Below, piece by piece: positions 7,505-41,848 of a DNA stretch of 64,000 nt; within the stretch, counting starts at the first letter, position 1, and the number at the start of each line of letters is the position of its first letter. The stretch spans positions 525,419-589,418 of the forward strand of contig NZ_CP053069.1 of assembly GCF_013003965.1 (NCBI RefSeq), in the 5' to 3' direction. The stretch is from Usitatibacter rugosus. Lineage in GTDB: Bacteria > Pseudomonadota > Gammaproteobacteria > Burkholderiales > Usitatibacteraceae. The notes beneath the pieces are model-generated. The model did not search any database. It saw nothing but the letters and a program-made list of their open reading frames with translations, and was not told the DNA's origin. The position numbers and the translations under genes were made by a program.

Positions 7505-8480
7505 GGGGCACCACCAGTTGCGCCTCGACGCCGGCGGGTTCCGCGTGTGAAAGCTCTACGTGCGCCCGGTCGCCATGCAAGCTCGCGAGCCTCTCACGGA
7601 GGTTCGTGAGCCCTGTGCCGGTGCCCATCTCCGCGCCGAACCCGAGGCCATCGTCGGTGACGCGCAGCACGAGCTGGCCGCCGCGGCTTTCCCCTGCGAT
7701 CACCACGCGGCCGCCCGCGGCGCGACGCTCGAGGCCGTGCTTCACGGCATTCTCGACCAGCGTCATCACGCTAAGCGGCGGGACGGACACGTCGTTCAGC
7801 GCGGTCGGCACGGCGATCTCGTACCGCAGGCGCTCGCCCATGCGGATGCTCATGATCGAAAGGTACGCCTCGGTGCGGGAGAGTTCCTGTCCCAGCGTCG
7901 AGCGGCCCGAGCGGACGTCGGGGATGCTGGTCTTCAGGTAGCGGATCAGGCTCTCCAGCATGCGGTCAGCGGCCGCCGCGTCGCTGCGTACGAGCTGCTG
8001 CACGTTTGCGAGCGTGTTGTAGAGGAAGTGGGGCTCGACCTGCGCCTGGAGCGCACTCAGGCGCAACTCCGCGAGTTGCCGTTCCTGCGTTGCACGCGAG
8101 AGAGCGTCGCGTTGCAGGATCGCTGTCACGAGGAGCGTCGCCGCGAGCAGTGCGGCCAGGCCGAGATCGAACGCGAGGTCGGCATTCGGAAACTTCATCG
8201 CGGCGTTGCTCCAGCGTAATGCGGCCGTCGCGATGGCCGCGCCGAGTGCGGACGCCACGAGCGCCAGCGCGACCTGGAAGCGGATATCGCGACGCGAGAG
8301 GTATGCAGTTGCCAGGACTAGGCCGGCATGCGCGATGGCGCACGCCAGGGCGAGCTGGAGAAAACGGCCCAGCCACGCACTCCATCCCGCGTAAGCGAAG
8401 GCGCAGCCCGCGACGATCGCCGCGGCGATCCACGCCGCGGGCGATCCGAACGGCGCCGAATCAGGATTCGCCGAAGCCAA
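7497..8480 (-). CDS. LytS/YehU-type sensor histidine kinase (membrane domain plus His_kinase/HATPase)
   Basis: About five N-terminal TM helices, then the H-box-like region LSALQAQVEPHFLYNTLANVQQLV and a GHKL ATPase region (VENAVKHG...DDGLGF). Confidence 0.8.
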   Translation of the reverse strand: MASANPDSAPFGSPAAWIAAAIVAGCAFAYAGWSAWLGRFLQLALACAIAHAGLVLATAYLSRRDIRFQVALALVASALGAAIATAALRWSNAAMKFPNADLAFDLGLAALLAATLLVTAILQRDALSRATQERQLAELRLSALQAQVEPHFLYNTLANVQQLVRSDAAAADRMLESLIRYLKTSIPDVRSGRSTLGQELSRTEAYLSIMSIRMGERLRYEIAVPTALNDVSVPPLSVMTLVENAVKHGLERRAAGGRVVIAGESRGGQLVLRVTDDGLGFGAEMGTGTGLTNLRERLASLHGDRAHVELSHAEPAGVEAQLVVPLG

Positions 8481-27997: not shown

Positions 27998-28657
27998 ATG
28001 AGCACCGACAAGAACGTCGCCCGCGCGGCGAAGCTGGAGTGTGCCGCGATCAGCGATGCGCTGGACCGCCTGCGCATCGCCGGCCAGTGCTATCGCATCG
28101 TGGCGATCGACAAGAAATTCCGCATGGCCGGCCGCGCCTTCACGATCCTTTATCGACCCGCGACCGTCACCACCGGCAACGTCGGCGAGTACATCGACGA
28201 CGTCCCGCCCGGCAGCGTGATCGTGATCGACAACCAGGGCCGCGACGACGTCAGCACCTGGGGCGGGATCCTCACCGAGACAGCCCATCACAAGGGCATC
28301 GCCGGAACGCTCGTCGATGGTCTCGTGCGCGATGCCTCCGCGTGCCTCGAGCTGGGCTACCCCATCTACGCGCGTGGCCACTGGATGCGCACCGGCAAGG
28401 GCCGCATCGAGCTGGCCGGACTGCAGGTGCCGGTTACCATCGGCCAGGTGTGCGTCTCGCCTGGCGACCTCGTTCGCGGCGATGCGGATGGCGTGGTCGT
28501 CGTGCCGCAATCGCGCGAGGACGAGGTGCTGAAGATCGCCGAGGAAGTCGCCTCGGCGGAGACGCGCGTGCGGGAGATGGTGCGCGGTGGGATGCGGATG
28601 GACGAAGCGCGAAAGATCGTGAAGTATCACGACCTCCAGAGACCGACCGATACCTGA
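27998..28657 (+). CDS. RraA-family protein (RraA / 4-hydroxy-4-methyl-2-oxoglutarate aldolase like)
   Basis: GDVIVIDNQG..DVSTWGGILT and GTLVDGLVRD motifs. Start 1 nt after the Bug gene stop. Confidence 0.8.
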   Translation: MSTDKNVARAAKLECAAISDALDRLRIAGQCYRIVAIDKKFRMAGRAFTILYRPATVTTGNVGEYIDDVPPGSVIVIDNQGRDDVSTWGGILTETAHHKGIAGTLVDGLVRDASACLELGYPIYARGHWMRTGKGRIELAGLQVPVTIGQVCVSPGDLVRGDADGVVVVPQSREDEVLKIAEEVASAETRVREMVRGGMRMDEARKIVKYHDLQRPTDT

Positions 28658-28665
28658 GGACCGCC

Positions 28666-30048
28666 ATGAAGACGATGCGCTCGCTTCTCATCGGCGTGGC
28701 GATGGCCACCGCCATCCTCCCGGCCATCGCCCAGCAGCCCGCGAAATGCCAGCTCGCGAAGATCGCGGAGTGGCCGGTTCGATTCGTCGGAAACAATCCG
28801 GTTATCGACGGTGCTATCAACGGCAAGAAGATCACGATCCTCCTGGACACCGGCTCCTACGTGAGCCTGGTCATGAAGGCATCGGCGGAGAAGCTCGGGT
28901 TGAACCTGAGGGGGACGGGCCAGTTCGCGGGCGGCTTCGGCGGCTCGACGCCGATCTTCGTGACGAATATCGAGGAGATGCGTATCGGCGAATCGGTGCG
29001 GAAGAACTGGCGTGTGCGCGTCGCGGGCGAAGGCGCTCCTCCGTTCGACTTCATCCTCGGCGACGATTTCTTCAGGCAGGTCGATCTCGAGTTCGACTAC
29101 GCCAAGGGCGTGGTGCGCGTCTTCCAGCCGGAGAACTGCAAGAGCGCCTTTCTCGGATATTGGGATGCGAACGCGCAGGTGCTGCCGATGTTGAACGACA
29201 AGCAACATGTCGTGGTGCCCATCAAGATCAATGGCCGCGAGGGAAGGGCCACGCTCGACAGTGGCGCCGCGGGCTCGCTCGTTTCGCTTGCATTCGCGGA
29301 GAGCGTGGGCATCACGAAGGATTCCCCGGGCGTCCTTCCGGGCGGATGCTCGTCCGGCATGGGAGGCACGGGCCTGCGCAACTGGGTGTCCCGGTTCGAC
29401 TCGGTGTCCATCGGCAACGAGACGATCCGCGATCCGATGCTCCGCATCCAGGATTACTCGACGACGGACATGAGGCAGGCGTCCGACATGTTCCTTGGCA
29501 CCGATTTCCTGAAATCGCACCGCGTGTACATCGCGCGAAGCCAGGACAAGGTGTACTTCTCGTATACCGGCGGGCAAGCGTTCACAGCGACGCCCGGCGT
29601 CGATTGCGACAAGCGCGAGGCCGACAAGGGCACGCCGGAGCTGCTGGCGTCCTACCAGCAGGCGCTCGCGGCCAACCCGAATGACACGAAGACGCTGATG
29701 CAGCGCGCGGACCTTCGCCGTCGCACGGGCGATTCGCCGGGCGCGATGGCCGACCTCGACGCGGTGATCAAGCTGGAGCCGACCAACGGTGTGGCACTCG
29801 CAATGCGCGCGTCGATGCGGGCGCAGGCGAAGGACATCGATGGCTCGCTCGCCGATTCCGAAGCGGCGATTGCGCAAGGGATTCGCATGGCGCCGATGTA
29901 CGCGAACCGCGGGGCGATGTATCGATCCAAAGGCAATTGCGAGCGCGCGATCGTGGAGTACGAGGAGGCGCTGAAGATCGATCCCAACCTGCAGTCCGCG
30001 CTGCGCGGACGCGATGCGTGCCGCAAAGGTGAAGCGAAGAACGAGTGA
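28666..30048 (+). CDS. secreted tandem retropepsin-like aspartic protease domains with C-terminal TPR repeats
   Basis: Signal peptide. Two D-T/S-G-A motifs (ILLDTGSYV and TLDSGAAGS). C-terminal TPR-like helices (AMYRSKGNCERAIVEYEEALKIDPN). Confidence 0.65.
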   Translation: MKTMRSLLIGVAMATAILPAIAQQPAKCQLAKIAEWPVRFVGNNPVIDGAINGKKITILLDTGSYVSLVMKASAEKLGLNLRGTGQFAGGFGGSTPIFVTNIEEMRIGESVRKNWRVRVAGEGAPPFDFILGDDFFRQVDLEFDYAKGVVRVFQPENCKSAFLGYWDANAQVLPMLNDKQHVVVPIKINGREGRATLDSGAAGSLVSLAFAESVGITKDSPGVLPGGCSSGMGGTGLRNWVSRFDSVSIGNETIRDPMLRIQDYSTTDMRQASDMFLGTDFLKSHRVYIARSQDKVYFSYTGGQAFTATPGVDCDKREADKGTPELLASYQQALAANPNDTKTLMQRADLRRRTGDSPGAMADLDAVIKLEPTNGVALAMRASMRAQAKDIDGSLADSEAAIAQGIRMAPMYANRGAMYRSKGNCERAIVEYEEALKIDPNLQSALRGRDACRKGEAKNE

Positions 30049-30061
30049 CGCAAAAATGTAG

Positions 30062-30090
30062 TTGACACGTTCGTGGCGCGCGACTAAAGT
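30062..30090 (+). promoter_or_regulatory. sigma70-like promoter TTGACA-N17-TAAAGT
   Basis: -35 TTGACA at 30062-30067, 17-nt spacer, -10 TAAAGT at 30085-30090. Confidence 0.5.
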
Positions 30091-30096
30091 TCGCTC

Positions 30097-30322
30097 CCTC
30101 ATTCAACACAGCACGACTATTAACCGGACATGAAACACAGCCTTCACATCAACCAGACGCAACCACGCGCTTCCGAGCCGCGGGTCGGGACCTTTGCGTC
30201 CTGCCTACGCGACGGTGCGACGTATCGCGACTACTCCGGGAGGATGACGGCCTAAAACCCGCTCATCCATCGTGCTGTGACACGAAGCCCGGAGATCGAA
30301 AGACTCCGGGCTTTTTGCTTTT
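30097..30322 (+). ncRNA. candidate small RNA (about 220 nt), 6S-like long-range closing helix, ends at an intrinsic terminator
   Basis: Predicted promoter just upstream. 5' CACAGCACGA (30107-30116) pairs with 3' TCGTGCTGTG (30270-30279). Terminator hairpin CCCGGAG..CTCCGGG plus CTTTTTGCTTTT. No ORF. Confidence 0.4.
30288..30322 (+). terminator. rho-independent terminator
   Basis: GC stem CCCGGAG/CTCCGGG followed by a T-run. Confidence 0.65.
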
Positions 30323-30334
30323 CTTGCGTTGTTT

Positions 30335-30360
30335 GTCATTCCCGCGAAAGCGGGAATCGC
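30335..30360. repeat. dRS3-like palindrome GTCATTCCCGCGAAAGCGGGAATC (ATTCCC-N8-GGGAAT, GAAA tetraloop hairpin)
   Basis: Second copy at 41820-41848. Confidence 0.7.
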
Positions 30361-30453
30361 TCTTTAACAATTCGGATGTGGTCTATTGGCGCCCGCCGTA
30401 TTTGGCGGCGGGCGCAACGGGCAGGTATCGCCCATGAATTTCATTTCATCAAT

Positions 30454-30530
30454 GCCCCGCTGGCGGAATCGGCATACGCGCTGGTCTCAGGAACCAGTCC
30501 TTCCGGGTTCGAATCCCGGGCGGGGTACCA
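30454..30530 (+). tRNA. tRNA-Leu(CAG)-like, non-canonical: class I length (77 nt) with a 5-nt variable loop instead of the long Leu variable arm
   Basis: Hand-folded cloverleaf: acceptor GCCCCGC/GCGGGGT, Leu-type D-arm GGCGGAATCGGCATACGCG, anticodon loop CTCAGGA, T-arm CCGGG-TTCGAAT-CCCGG, A73, encoded CCA. Confidence 0.5.
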
Positions 30531-30536
30531 ATCAAC

Positions 30537-30614
30537 ACCCTTGTAGCTCAGCGGATCGAGAGCGCCTGGCTACGAACCAGGAGGACGGGAGTTCGATTCT
30601 CTCCGAGGGTGCCA
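30537..30614 (+). tRNA. tRNA-Arg(ACG)
   Basis: Acceptor ACCCTTG/CGAGGGT (A1:U72, one G-U). D-arm GCTC-AGCGGATCGA-GAGC. Anticodon arm CCTGG-CTACGAA-CCAGG. T-arm GGGAG-TTCGATT-CTCTC. G73 and CCA. Confidence 0.65.
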
Positions 30615-30615
30615 T

Positions 30616-30691
30616 GCCTTCCTAGCTGGTCTGGTGACAGCGCCGCGCCGAAATCGCGGAGAGCTCCGCTCGAAACGGAGGGGAGGCACCA
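30616..30691 (+). tRNA. tRNA-Phe(GAA)-like, non-canonical (C33, T-loop CTCGAAA); starts 2 nt after the Arg tRNA
   Basis: Full cloverleaf: acceptor GCCTTCC/GGGAGGC, D-arm GCTG-GTCTGGTGA-CAGC, anticodon arm CCGCG-CCGAAAT-CGCGG, 4-nt variable, T-arm CTCCG-CTCGAAA-CGGAG, A73 and CCA. Confidence 0.45.
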
Positions 30692-30760
30692 CGTTGTCGG
30701 ACATGCAACTTCATGCACTTAAGTCCATTAAGTCCATGAAGCTGCATCTCGGAAGTCCAC

Positions 30761-30834
30761 GGTGATCTTGGTGTAGCGACAGCACATCGCGCTGTGAACG
30801 CGAAAGGTCCGGTTCGATTCCGGCGATCACCCCA
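30761..30834 (+). tRNA. tRNA-His(GTG) with encoded G-1, C73 and CCA; T-stem slightly irregular
   Basis: G-1 then GTGATCT..GATCAC, C, CCA. Anticodon loop CTGTGAA. T-loop TTCGATT. Confidence 0.55.
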
Positions 30835-30991
30835 CTCACGTACAGCAGGGACCACATCCGCATGCGCCTCGAAAGAGGCACACCAGATTCGTCTGGAACG
30901 CATCGCAGAGGGCGAGGCTCGTGAGTCCTCCCTGGCGCGCTCGCCCGAAGTCGGAGGGGCGCGTACCGCGGTACGGGAAGGACGGATACAG

Positions 30992-31065
30992 GGCGACCTA
31001 GCTCAGCTTGGGAGAGCGCCGGCGAAAGCCGGAGGTCGTGGGTTCGAATCCCATTGTCGCCACCA
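30992..31065 (+). tRNA. tRNA-Ala-like cloverleaf whose anticodon loop is replaced by a GAAA tetraloop (74 nt, no anticodon)
   Basis: Acceptor GGCGACC/TGTCGCC, A73, CCA. Ala-type D-arm TAGCTCAGCTTGGGAGAGC. Anticodon arm CCGGC-GAAA-GCCGG. T-arm GTGGG-TTCGAAT-CCCAT. Confidence 0.45.
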
Positions 31066-31136
31066 TTGCATAGCTCAGTCTGGAAGAGCGATCGGCTGAT
31101 AACCGACTGTCGCGGGTTCGACTCCCGCTGCAAACC
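31064..31136 (+). tRNA. tRNA-Ile(GAT)-like with a defective acceptor stem; overlaps the CCA of the upstream tRNA-like; no encoded CCA
   Basis: D-arm GCTC-AGTCTGGAA-GAGC. Anticodon arm ATCGG-CTGATAA-CCGAC. T-arm GCGGG-TTCGACT-CCCGC. Acceptor has only 5 bp (TTGCA/TGCAA). Confidence 0.4.
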
Positions 31137-31433
31137 TCGCGCGGAAGCGCTTGTGCGATGACAGCAGTACCCGGAACCGTCCCCGCGAAGCAGTGCATCG
31201 CTTCGCAGCGCGGACCGGCTTGCGCACCGATGCGTGCGCGATGGATGGAGCGGCAACAGCCGGACGACGCGTCGCTCGCGAGGCGCGGCCGCTTCCCCCA
31301 TCGCGGCGCCCGGAGCCCGCCGGATCGGCGTGGGGCGGTTCCACCCTATTCGTGGTTCAAGGAGCAGTCGCAGCAACAAGGAGCAGTCGCAGTAGAAGCA
31401 TCCATTTGTCCAACAGAGGAAAGGAGGTTGATC

Positions 31434-32567
31434 GTGTTTGGGAAATACCATGTGAAGAAGGACGAGCGAGCGCTCCTGTTCCGCAAAGGAGACTTCGTTC
31501 GCGTGCTCGGTCCTGGGGAGCACAAGGTTCCGTTCTTCGGCGGCTATGAGGCCGAGAAGTATTCGGTCGACAAGCCGCTGTTCGAGCACCGCCTCGCGGA
31601 GTACCTGCGCAAGGCGGAACCGGAAGCGGTCGAACGCGAGTTCGTCGCCCTGGAGCTCGGCCCGATGGAAGTAGGCCTGCGCTACGAGAACGGCGTGCTG
31701 GCGGAAGTGCTCGCACCGGAGACGCGTCGCCTGTACTGGAAGGGCTTCGTGGAGATCCGTTTCGAGACCTTCGACATCACGCGCGATTTCGCCATCGCGC
31801 CGGCGCTCGCGCGCCAGCTCGCGGCCGGTTCGGTGCGTGGCTCGCGCGTCGCAGGCACCGAAGGCGTCTTCGCGGTGCAGGTGCCGCAGTACCACGTCGG
31901 CGTGCTGTACGTGGACGGCAAGGTCGAGAAGCTGCTCGATGCCGGCCTGCATGCCTACTGGAAGTACCACCGCGACCTGCGCGCGGAGCTCGTGGACCTT
32001 CGCCTCCAGTCGCTGGAGGTGGCGGGCCAGGAGATCCTCACGAAGGACAAGGTGTCGCTGCGGGTGAACCTGAACGCGGGGTATCGCGTGACGGACGTGC
32101 GGGTCGCCTACGCGAAGCAGGCCAAGCCGATGGACTACCTGTACAAGGAGCTCCAGTTCGGCCTGCGCGCGGCGGTGGGCACGCGCACCCTGGACGAGCT
32201 GCTCGAGAACAAGGGCGTGATCGACGAGGTGGTCGAGCGCCACATCAAGCGCCGCGTCGAAGGCTTCGGCCTCGAGGTGGACTCGGTCGGCGTGAAGGAC
32301 ATCATCCTGCCGGGTGACATGAAGCTGATCCTGGCGAAGGTGGTGGAGGCGGAGAAGGTGGCGCAAGCCAACGTGATCCGCCGCCGCGAGGAAACGGCGG
32401 CGACGCGTTCGCTGCTGAACACCGCCAAGGTGATGGAGGACAGCCCGATCGCCCTGCGCCTGAAGGAGCTGGAAACGCTGGAGAAGGTCACCGAGAAGAT
32501 CGACAAGATCTCGGTGTTCGGAGGCCTCGACGGCGTGCTGAAGGATCTCGTGAAGATCCGTGCATGA
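31434..32567 (+). CDS. SPFH/band-7 family protein
   Basis: GTG start 6 nt after AGGAGG. SPFH-type domain. C-terminal coiled-coil region. Confidence 0.75.
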   Translation: MFGKYHVKKDERALLFRKGDFVRVLGPGEHKVPFFGGYEAEKYSVDKPLFEHRLAEYLRKAEPEAVEREFVALELGPMEVGLRYENGVLAEVLAPETRRLYWKGFVEIRFETFDITRDFAIAPALARQLAAGSVRGSRVAGTEGVFAVQVPQYHVGVLYVDGKVEKLLDAGLHAYWKYHRDLRAELVDLRLQSLEVAGQEILTKDKVSLRVNLNAGYRVTDVRVAYAKQAKPMDYLYKELQFGLRAAVGTRTLDELLENKGVIDEVVERHIKRRVEGFGLEVDSVGVKDIILPGDMKLILAKVVEAEKVAQANVIRRREETAATRSLLNTAKVMEDSPIALRLKELETLEKVTEKIDKISVFGGLDGVLKDLVKIRA

Positions 32568-32665
32568 CCCCAGCCCGCTGGAGACGTCCGGTCGGCTGGG
32601 CTTTTTCTTGAATCCGAACGGCCCGGGCGCCGCGTCCTAGCTGGACACCGAGGACGGGAGGCTTC

Positions 32666-33577
32666 ATGCGTCACGCCGTGTTCGCGCTGGCCGCGCTGCT
32701 TCTTGCCGCATGCCATTTTCCCGAGCCGAAGGTCGGCCTCGCAGGTCCGTTGCCCCTCGACCTCACCTACCGGGAGGCCCGCGGCGGCCTCGTGATCCTG
32801 ACCGGCCGCGTGGACGACCGCGAGGACGTGGACTTCATCCTCGACACGGGCGCCCCGGTGAGCGTGCTCCTCGACGGCAAGCGGACCACGAAGCTGGGCC
32901 TCGATACTCGCCTCGCCGTCCCGCTCGGCAACCCCAACAATCCCGCGACACCCACGGGCGTCCTTCGCGGCGATACGCGCATCGCGTTCAACGGCGTCAC
33001 GCTCTTGGGACTCACGGTCGTGGTCATTCCCGAGAAGTCGATGCCGTGCAGTGAGCGCTTCGACGAGATCGGCTTCGCCGGCGTGATCGGCGCGGATCTC
33101 TTCCGAAAGTTCGTCGTGGAGATCGATCCCGTCGCCAAGCGCGTTCGCCTGCACGACCCCGCCAAGTGGCAGCCTTCGCCGGGCGCCTCCATCGTTCCCA
33201 TCGCGTTCCGCGACGGCCACCCGTTCACGATGGTGAAAGTGCGCCTGCCTTCGGGTGACACCGTCTCCGAGGACATGAACATCGACATCGGCATGAACGG
33301 CTCGATCTCGCTCGTAGCCGGTAGCCACCCCGCCATCGTCATGCCGAAGGACGGCAAGCCGGGCAACTCGTGCTTCGTGAACGGCGCGCGCAGCGAGATG
33401 ATCGGGGCTCCGCTCGACGTGACGCTCGGCACGAAGAGCTTCCGCGTCGAGGCGCCGCGCTATACCGAGTACCTGAATGCGGTGAGCGACAAGCGCGGCG
33501 GCACGCTCGGCGTGAAGCTCTTCCAGGGCGAGCGCCTCACCATCGACTATCCCGGCAAACGCATAGTGGTAGGATAA
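32666..33577 (+). CDS. lipoprotein, retropepsin-like aspartic protease
   Basis: Lipobox LLAAC. Motif FILDTGAPVSVL. Second half also pepsin-like (IDIGMNGSISL). Confidence 0.65.
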   Translation: MRHAVFALAALLLAACHFPEPKVGLAGPLPLDLTYREARGGLVILTGRVDDREDVDFILDTGAPVSVLLDGKRTTKLGLDTRLAVPLGNPNNPATPTGVLRGDTRIAFNGVTLLGLTVVVIPEKSMPCSERFDEIGFAGVIGADLFRKFVVEIDPVAKRVRLHDPAKWQPSPGASIVPIAFRDGHPFTMVKVRLPSGDTVSEDMNIDIGMNGSISLVAGSHPAIVMPKDGKPGNSCFVNGARSEMIGAPLDVTLGTKSFRVEAPRYTEYLNAVSDKRGGTLGVKLFQGERLTIDYPGKRIVVG

Positions 33578-41819: not shown

Positions 41820-41848
41820 CGTCATTCCCGCGAAGGCGGGAATCCCGG
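41820..41848. repeat. second dRS3-like palindrome CGTCATTCCCGCGAAGGCGGGAATCCCGG; contains the S41 peptidase stop codon
   Basis: ATTCCC-N8-GGGAAT with a GAAG loop. Confidence 0.7.

Follow-up and report, generated by a model that had tools for sequence, protein, structure and literature searches.

The DNA analyzed here, referred to throughout as the window, is a stretch of 64,000 nucleotides (nt) of the Usitatibacter rugosus DSM 104443 genome, and the element that concerns us occupies the space between an open reading frame (ORF) ending at position 30048, which shows 100% identity to the aspartyl-protease/TPR protein DSM104443_00561, and an array of six tRNA and tRNA-like genes followed by a Band-7/SPFH protein gene (Table 1). 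It carries a promoter, a short ORF (sORF) of 41 codons, an intrinsic terminator and, past the terminator, a boxA of the rRNA-operon type. With modest confidence, we favor a reading of this region as the leader of an RNA-repair operon (RtcB/Band-7/b7a-tRNA) that would attenuate transcription in a ribosome-dependent manner, like the trp leader, as suggested by its sequence and by modeled RNA folds. Our confidence goes no further because the spacing of the Shine-Dalgarno sequence is poor, the antiterminator is short, and the pairings that would operate the switch are invariant and lack covariation.

A conserved, probable leader and its short reading frame

A first-pass annotation of this DNA had described a near-consensus sigma70 promoter, about 220 nt with no ORF and a clean intrinsic terminator, and had proposed 6S RNA as their product. 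The promoter was confirmed, as TTGACA-N17-TAAAGT (30062-30090) is the sole sigma70-like site on either strand between 29500 and 32000, where shuffled sequences gave a mean of 0.5; a G+C-rich discriminator, TCGCTCC, directly follows the -10 hexamer, and transcription would probably start near 30097. The terminator was equally well called, with a 10-bp G+C-rich stem (inverted repeat I8), a 9-nt loop, a U-tract and a folding energy of -20.2 kcal/mol, and the sole reason why our own terminator scan missed it is that the loop limit of the scan was 8 nt. The transcript as a whole is predicted to fold at -89.4 kcal/mol versus -62.5 kcal/mol for shuffled sequences (z = -5.85).

Nine further full copies of the element were found via neighboring proteins and DNA patterns and, together with that of the window, make up the ten on which the comparisons below are based: L002, which comes from a metagenome and shares about 95% identity with the window, L039, L036, L041, L032, L042, Betaproteobacteria bacterium GR16-43 (L001), Usitatibacter palustris (L043), and L047. 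This set bears out the existence of a discrete, conserved unit of about 220 nt running from promoter to terminator. The -35 hexamer TTGACA and the 17-nt spacer are present in all ten copies, and the -10 hexamer reads TAAAGT, TAGAGT, CACGAT, CACCAT or CAACAT.

Where the annotation had seen no ORF, the transcript in fact contains a 41-codon ORF with an ATG start, and the start, frame and stop position of this ORF are kept in every homologue. The ATG is preceded by CCGGA, and the frame is open, in ten of the ten copies; the ORF spans 41 codons in seven of them, 42 in two and 31 in one. The distance between the ATG and a downstream CTCCGGG motif (segment 2, see below) is 104, 74 or 101 nt and always 2 mod 3, and therefore every indel is frame-preserving, while the stop codon follows CTCCGGG by 12 or 15 nt in all copies. 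The encoded peptide, on the other hand, drifts. Its ratio of nonsynonymous to synonymous change (pN/pS) is about 1 (range 0.7-2.7), its variable columns are distributed over codon positions 1, 2 and 3 as 24, 20 and 19, with no third-position bias, and the peptides of U. palustris (MDLLNHTTNKHL...VSGSMAKG) and L047 (MKRHLHPQMNQL...ISGSAMMA) are practically unrelated to that of the window, save for the residues that derive from invariant nucleotides. Persistence of the ORF, of its length and of its limits, combined with drift of the peptide, is, judging from these alignments, the pattern expected of a leader peptide. Histidine occupies codon 6 in eight of the ten leaders and an MK(H/R)xLH start is frequent, although neither is universal.

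The same data bear on the possibility that the region is a plain small-protein gene, whose 41-residue product would act in RNA repair and whose terminator would just end the gene. A small-protein gene would account for the conserved start, frame and length, for the in-frame indels, and for some synonymous changes, such as the Ser codon TCC in the window versus AGC in L032; a recurrent C-terminal S-G-x-M motif and the frequent N-terminal motif mentioned above also fit, and the sORF has indeed been called as a gene twice, though only twice, in one metagenome (P0093) and in U. palustris. We nevertheless consider such a gene very unlikely in view of the pN/pS values, the even distribution of changes over codon positions, and the near absence of shared residues between the U. 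palustris and L047 peptides and that of the window. The S-G residues, moreover, are encoded by the nucleotide-invariant segment 2, where a constraint at the RNA level is the simpler explanation, and the peptide belongs to no Pfam or NCBIfam family and has a single relative, P0093, returned by a profile search with the peptide alignment among 5.8 billion proteins.

Table 1. Positions of the leader features and of the downstream genes in the window.
Feature	Position	Strand	Description
Promoter	30052-30090	+	A-tract 30052-30056 (UP-element-like), -35 TTGACA 30062-30067, 17-nt spacer, -10 TAAAGT 30085-30090
Helix P1, 5' arm	30107-30116	+	CACAGCACGA; 'closing helix' of the first-pass annotation; forms in the minimum-free-energy fold
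Segment 1	30124-30128	+	CCGGA, abuts the start codon; paired by RNAalifold with TCCGG of segment 2 (helix P2)
Leader sORF	30130-30255	+	41 codons, MKHSLHINQTQPRASEPRVGTFASCLRDGATYRDYSGRMTA; stop TAA 30253-30255; from the ORF list
Segment 2	30234-30240	+	CTCCGGG; last base of codon 35 plus codons 36-37; ends 12 nt before the stop
Hairpin H2	30242-30268	+	GGAUGACGG/CCG-UCAUCC, sORF stop in the loop; minimum-free-energy and consensus folds
Helix P1, 3' arm, or hairpin H3	30270-30285	+	P1 3' arm TCGTGCTGTG (30270-30279); alternatively hairpin H3
Intrinsic terminator/putative attenuator	30285-30322	+	stem AAGCCCGGAG/CTCCGGGCTT (30285-30294/30304-30313), 9-nt loop, U-tract TTTTTGCTTTT
Segment 3	30288-30294	+	CCCGGAG, terminator 5' arm; pairs with segment 4 or 2
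Segment 4	30304-30310	+	CTCCGGG, terminator 3' arm
Hairpin at boxB position	30339-30356	+	TTCCCGCGAAAGCGGGAA, just 5' of boxA; resembles a repetitive extragenic palindromic (REP) repeat
boxA	30359-30370	+	GCTCTTTAACAA, rRNA-operon type; identical to the boxA of the E. coli rrnH leader
boxC-like stretch	30370-30383	+	ATTCGGATGTGGTC, G/T-rich; 5' arm of a long-range stem (inverted repeat I2)
Hairpin H4	30389-30415	+	GCGCCCGCCG-N7-CGGCGGGCGC; inverted repeat I4; in all homologues
tRNA/tRNA-like array	30454-31136	+	cargo, six genes; ARAGORN and Rfam tRNA matches
Band-7/SPFH protein gene	31158-32567	+	cargo; Pfam PF01145, E = 2.4e-29

Predicted, mutually exclusive pairings around the terminator

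When identity was computed among six lineages, values of 0.95 for segment 2, 0.94 for the terminator and 0.84 for CCGGA plus the ATG were obtained, versus 0.55 for hairpin H2, 0.48 for the 5' untranslated region and 0.46 for the interior of the ORF; going by the aligned sequences, conservation is concentrated in four near-invariant putative switch segments. Segment 2 reproduces the core of the terminator 3' arm exactly and is able to pair with either segment 1 or segment 3, the latter pairing being the putative antiterminator. This 2:3 helix of 7 bp is possible in all ten copies (100% of cells), closes a three-way junction with hairpins H2 and H3 and adds about -11.5 kcal/mol. The terminator itself (3:4) is 100% paired and invariant in the ten copies, and helix P2 (1:2) is paired in 96% of cells; according to the models, pairing of segment 1 with segment 2 can serve as an anti-antiterminator and occlude the start region. 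The opposition between 1:2 plus 3:4 on one side and 2:3 on the other is, as modeled, the classical layout of an attenuator. The arrangement of the parts is of the same kind: a short ORF lies between promoter and intrinsic terminator, upstream of co-directional genes; a predicted antiterminator that excludes the terminator uses the terminator 5' arm in ten of ten homologues; and the stop codon is so placed that a terminating ribosome would occlude the antiterminator strand.

The two hairpins enclosed by the 2:3 helix are also retained. H2 is 90.8% paired, with three pairs changed on both sides (covariation), while H3 (UCGUG-CUGUGA-CACGA), next to the terminator, keeps its CGUG/CACG stem in all ten copies (94% of cells paired) and forms in the folds of truncated RNAs. 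The CUGUG loop of H3 is kept in GR16-43 but not in the L036 group, L032/L042, U. palustris and L047. The H3 segment CATCGTGCTGTGA (30268-30280) also matches the anticodon stem-loop of the tRNA-His-like gene, CATCGCGCTGTGA (30785-30797), at 12 of 13 positions, a likeness we did not rely on, about 0.4 such matches being expected by chance according to our estimate. A long-range complementarity between 30164-30178 and 31139-31153 is not conserved in L002 and was treated as chance.

The effect of a ribosome on these pairings was modeled with RNAs truncated before segment 4, in which a 29-nt footprint was masked at each codon. In seven of the ten homologues, the 2:3 helix appeared in the minimum-free-energy fold for most positions of the ribosomal P-site. 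In the window copy and L002 it appeared only with a ribosome within the first four codons, P1 and P2 winning otherwise, and L039 showed it at scattered positions as far as codon 31. The helix was lost in essentially all homologues once the P-site was at least at about codon 31-32.

These folds also speak to the proposal of the first-pass annotation that the region encodes 6S RNA (SsrS), or a 6S-like RNA that binds RNA polymerase, a proposal that leaned on a size of about 220 nt, on the presence of a promoter and terminator of its own, and on paired 5' and 3' ends. The end complementarity is genuine in the window, where the two arms of P1 (CACAGCACGA and TCGTGCTGTG) are perfectly complementary over 10 nt, with an estimated chance expectation of about 0.03 within 226 nt. 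Among the homologues, P1 is only partly conserved: it is 76.8% paired across the ten copies, with three pairs changed on both sides and five broken in some sequences, and is weak or degenerate in four of them (L032, L042, U. palustris and L047). In Rfam, neither RF00013 nor any other family matched 30062-30322 at E<=10 (29900-31400 searched); the same held for homologues L043 and L001 at E<=5, and the 6S model had no match at its gathering score in the whole window. Both the minimum-free-energy and the RNAalifold structures are branched, with P1, P2, interior hairpins, H2 and the terminator, where 6S RNA would form a rod with central bubble, and the alternative fold is a three-way junction; the conserved sORF inside the RNA and the linkage in cis to downstream genes are further differences from 6S RNA. 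Lastly, 6S is a core housekeeping gene, whereas this element sits in an inserted cassette that is absent from the related locus L033, and two rtcB loci (L044 and L046) lack it. The 6S reading is thus not supported and we regard it as extremely improbable; the annotation's own hedge that this could be a different RNA was right.

Proposed read-through into boxA and the downstream genes

The leader continues beyond the terminator with features reminiscent of rRNA operons. The boxA occurs only once in the window at one mismatch or fewer, against 0.02 occurrences expected, and is found in eight of the ten homologues, being absent in U. palustris and L047. A boxA of the rrn type is the binding site for the Nus-factor antitermination complex. 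The hairpin at the boxB position belongs to a dispersed REP-like family, TTCCCGCG(A/G)A(A/G)GCGGGAA, with two copies in the window (30339-30356 and 41825-41842) and two in L039, and other hairpins take its place in L036, L041, L042 and GR16-43. The boxC-like stretch is 93% complementary over 14 nt to GACCACATCCGCAT at 30850-30863, 466 nt downstream, so that the resulting long-range stem brackets four tRNA-like genes in the manner of an rRNA processing stalk; a counterpart in GR16-43, formed by TTCGGATGTGGTC with GACCACATCCGAA, lies around rtcB and two tRNAs. In U. palustris, one G:C pair of hairpin H4 is flipped to C:G.

The element is found directly upstream of a co-directional rtcB in seven loci (GR16-43, L032, L036, L041, L042, U. 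palustris and L047), and because these show three different upstream neighbors, it travels with the downstream cargo rather than with the protease gene. The window and L002 have it upstream of the boxA, tRNA-like and Band-7 genes, and the cargo is co-directional with the leader in all loci examined. Two other Usitatibacter-like rtcB loci, L044 and L046 (at about 7880-8000; RtcB identity 76-78%), lack the leader, so that only some of the rtcB genes in this family carry the proposed attenuator. The genomic linkage, like the sequence anatomy, the conservation pattern and the feasibility of the pairings, is a matter of direct observation. In a pattern scan of a genome collection the 19-mer TCCGGGAGGATGACGGCCT had 29 matches, of which 28 were chance hits in unrelated phyla and only that in GR16-43 was real, and in metagenomes the terminator 19-mer had seven, corresponding to three full elements, one 3' remnant (L037) and three chance matches. 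The remnant (2522-2800 of L037) consists of the 3' module only, namely segment 2, two hairpins and an identical terminator, located 3' of a 20-codon ORF (MTHRPFLIDDQPVSGRARAA) and of a 23-nt inverted repeat (AATTAGGGGTCAGACCACTAATT); the sequence downstream of it looked like a putative convergent gene. L037 suggests that the 3' module is separable and reusable.

Concerning transcription, sORF translation, the working of the switch and the signal to which it would respond, we infer the following course of events. The strong sigma70 promoter would start an RNA near 30097, and the 41-codon ORF would be translated while RNA polymerase advances to the intrinsic terminator. A ribosome that keeps pace as far as the last codons or the stop would cover segment 2 and melt H2, and the terminator would form, leaving only a leader RNA of about 220 nt. 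Were the ribosome to lag or to stall at an earlier codon, segment 2 would instead be free to pair with CCCGGAG of segment 3, closing the three-way junction with H2 and H3 as an antiterminator, and polymerase would read through. With no ribosome at all, segment 1 and P1 could sequester segment 2, at least in the window copy. The read-through RNA would carry the boxA, and loading of the Nus complex would guard the long untranslated array from Rho, a step we propose because of the established role of boxA and Nus factors. The cargo expressed by read-through would be rtcB in most relatives and, here, the tRNA-like array plus the Band-7 gene. The signal would be impaired translation, caused for example by damaged tRNA or rRNA, or by ribosome-targeting toxins or drugs.

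Several of our results weigh against this attenuator. When segment 4 is present the terminator always wins at equilibrium, as about -11.5 kcal/mol for the 7-bp antiterminator stands against -20 kcal/mol, and any regulation must therefore be kinetic. Segments 1 to 4 are invariant, which leaves their pairings without support from covariation, and such invariance could result from another constraint, for example a protein site. No Shine-Dalgarno sequence at a workable distance is found in the 20 nt upstream of the ATG, where the only candidates are GGA/GGAG at 0-2 nt from it, and efficient translation of the sORF is unproven for want of a well-spaced one. The open frame in itself is weak evidence at 63% G+C, with a probability of about 0.4 per lineage, and frame 2 is mostly open too. 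No run of regulatory codons common to all ten homologues is obvious. On the other side, the cargo appears to need read-through, as no sigma70-like promoter was found between terminator and cargo in the window, L043, L047 and L001, though this comes from a scan for sigma70-type sites only; a search by eye before the cargo gave no convincing GG-N10-GC match to a sigma54 promoter.

Alternatively, the region may encode a free-standing non-coding small RNA (sRNA) of about 220 nt with a leaky terminator, acting in trans or as a structural partner of RNA-repair proteins, and the ORF would be incidental. The stable fold, the presence of promoter and terminator, conservation at the nucleotide and not at the protein level, the poor ribosome-binding context, the fact that gene callers almost never report the ORF, and the mostly open second frame are all compatible with an sRNA, and leader RNAs with functions in trans are documented (PMC7298713). 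An sRNA, however, leaves unexplained why the ATG, the frame, the 41-codon length and the stop position survive near-complete sequence turnover, why segment 2 repeats a terminator arm and keeps its spacing to the stop codon, and why the cargo is promoterless; nor do the ten homologues have in common a conserved single-stranded 'seed'. We hold a free-standing sRNA to be rather unlikely and prefer a cis-acting leader because of its fixed position upstream of co-directional, promoterless rtcB or tRNA-like genes. A mixed form is possible, in which an attenuator's terminated product doubles as an sRNA, like rnTrpL in Sinorhizobium.

The cassette, its known parallels and its significance

The setting of the leader is that of an insertion. 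Aspartyl-protease-domain genes flank the cassette (28039-30048 and 32666-33577). In L033 the two corresponding protease genes, the second of which is 70% identical to window 32666-33577, are adjacent and only 51 nt apart, and this empty site indicates that window 30049-32665 is an inserted cassette. The sequences of several Usitatibacter-like genomes suggest that this intergenic spot between protease genes is an insertion site for RNA-repair cassettes. A plasmid origin was dismissed, since no plasmid match was found, as was a phage origin, the phage matches consisting of generic tRNA similarity only and the scan for viral contigs being empty. A role of the cassette proteins as a known defense system was likewise set aside, PADLOC having returned no match for Band-7 or RtcB, and only weak ones to AAA proteins.

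The anticodons of the array read CAG, ACG, GAA, GTG, one in a malformed loop, and GAT, and its six genes are candidate 'Band-7-associated tRNAs', a concept of Burroughs and Aravind (2016) as quoted in a passage of bioRxiv 10.1101/312249. The Band-7 gene adjoins the tRNA-like genes in the window, L002 and GR16-43; its homologues in the latter two are called at 377-378 amino acids, and its true start is probably further downstream than that of the listed ORF. A tblastn search for RtcB found no match in the 64-kb window, while GR16-43, U. palustris and five loci from metagenomes carry rtcB in their homologous cassettes: the window copy has lost rtcB and kept the leader, the tRNA-like genes and Band-7. 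The neighborhood, as far as the cited passage of bioRxiv 10.1101/312249 goes, matches the RtcB/Band-7/'b7a-tRNA' association with RNA repair put forward by Burroughs and Aravind (2016).

Some of the array genes depart from ordinary tRNAs. The Leu(CAG) gene, at only 77 nt, seems to have no room for the long variable arm that a true tRNA-Leu would have, another is reported by ARAGORN as '???' with a 2-nt anticodon, and His(GTG) reads as having G-1, C73, an encoded CCA and an unusual D-arm. A tRNA-His(GTG)-like gene is found 3' of rtcB in U. palustris and GR16-43, and also in L002, whereas L041 carries Pro(CGG), Met(CAT) and Asp(GTC) in its place. Between tRNA-like genes 4 and 5, about 140 nt (30848-30990), at whose head lies the 3' arm of that long-range stem, GACCACATCCG, are conserved in L002 (2252-2395) and GR16-43 (L001 10166-10310); they have no Rfam match and may represent a structured RNA of the cassette that has yet to be described. 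Sub-threshold Rfam matches to Y-RNA families were seen, namely to YrlA (31.2 bits against a gathering score of 69; 31019-31119, across tRNA-like genes 5 and 6) and, in GR16-43 downstream of rtcB (L001 9198-9317), to the Deinococcus Y RNA (20 bits), where a T-arm-like GCGGGTTCGAGTCCCGC is visible. Both are consistent with tRNA-like or Y-like RNAs in RtcB neighborhoods.

We found no Rfam family and no protein family for this leader, and no description of it in the papers searched. The mechanism class is well known, and it is its place before RNA-repair and tRNA-like genes that would be new. The trpL, hisL, pheM and other classical attenuators of amino-acid operons share with it the four-segment layout, the stop near segment 2, the intrinsic terminator and the lack of a second promoter. 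Unlike them, the leader described here shows no obvious run of regulatory codons and lacks a good Shine-Dalgarno sequence, its segment 1 lies at the start codon and not inside the ORF, its antiterminator of only 7 bp is helped by the two hairpins it encloses, and its cargo serves RNA repair rather than biosynthesis. The rRNA-operon leader resembles the part beyond the terminator, with an exact boxA, a hairpin upstream of it, a G/T stretch with a distant complement downstream, and, at the promoter, an A-tract and a G+C-rich discriminator; here, however, tRNA-like genes or rtcB are driven, a leader ORF with a terminator comes first, and two relatives do without boxA.

A close parallel, by description, is the armZ gene (PA5471) of Pseudomonas aeruginosa, itself described as RtcB-like, which is controlled by the leader peptide PA5471.1 through a proposed attenuation that responds to stalled ribosomes (PMC12057347). 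Likeness extends to the short leader ORF, the predicted terminators, the RtcB-like gene and the proposed stall-driven read-through, by which expression would report translation stress. The differences are that ArmZ is an anti-repressor, whereas the cargo here consists of a true RtcB ligase or of tRNA-like genes with Band-7, and that most copies of our element have an rrn-type boxA 3' of the attenuator. E. coli rtcBA, according to published abstracts, responds to translation damage. Neighborhoods with a Band-7/SPFH gene beside tRNA-like genes, and with rtcB adjacent in relatives, have been described for proteins and tRNA-like RNA, in a passage of bioRxiv 10.1101/312249 that contains no leader sORF, attenuator or boxA; the window copy differs from them in having no rtcB.

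A more specific version of the attenuator would make of the leader a dedicated sensor of tRNA damage, in which stalls at early codons, such as the His codon at position 6 found in eight of the ten leaders, would follow the cleavage of the matching tRNAs by anticodon nucleases and switch on both RtcB, which reseals them, and tRNA-like genes that would serve as spares or decoys. Of the five cassettes with readable cargo, four come with a tRNA-His(GUG)-like gene. We consider this version quite unlikely at present, but if it were true, it would amount to an inducible, RNA-encoded 'tRNA backup and repair' in place of the RtcR/sigma54 protein sensor of enterobacteria, and would assign a testable role to Band-7-associated tRNAs.

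Regardless of the signal, a conserved sORF and leader have been missed by gene callers and Rfam alike, and the design of an rRNA-style boxA with a processing stalk would appear to have been reused for a stress cassette. To our knowledge, the timing of RtcB expression in bacteria without RtcR is largely unknown; the function of Band-7-associated tRNA-like genes, in turn, is without experimental validation according to the passage of bioRxiv 10.1101/312249 that deals with them. If the attenuator proposed here is true, experiments would be feasible in U. rugosus and U. palustris, both of them in culture, and the use of a leader peptide to report ribosome trouble would extend from drug-efflux control, as for armZ, to genuine RNA repair. 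RtcB and the Band-7-associated tRNA-like genes would then be tied directly to the state of the translation machinery.

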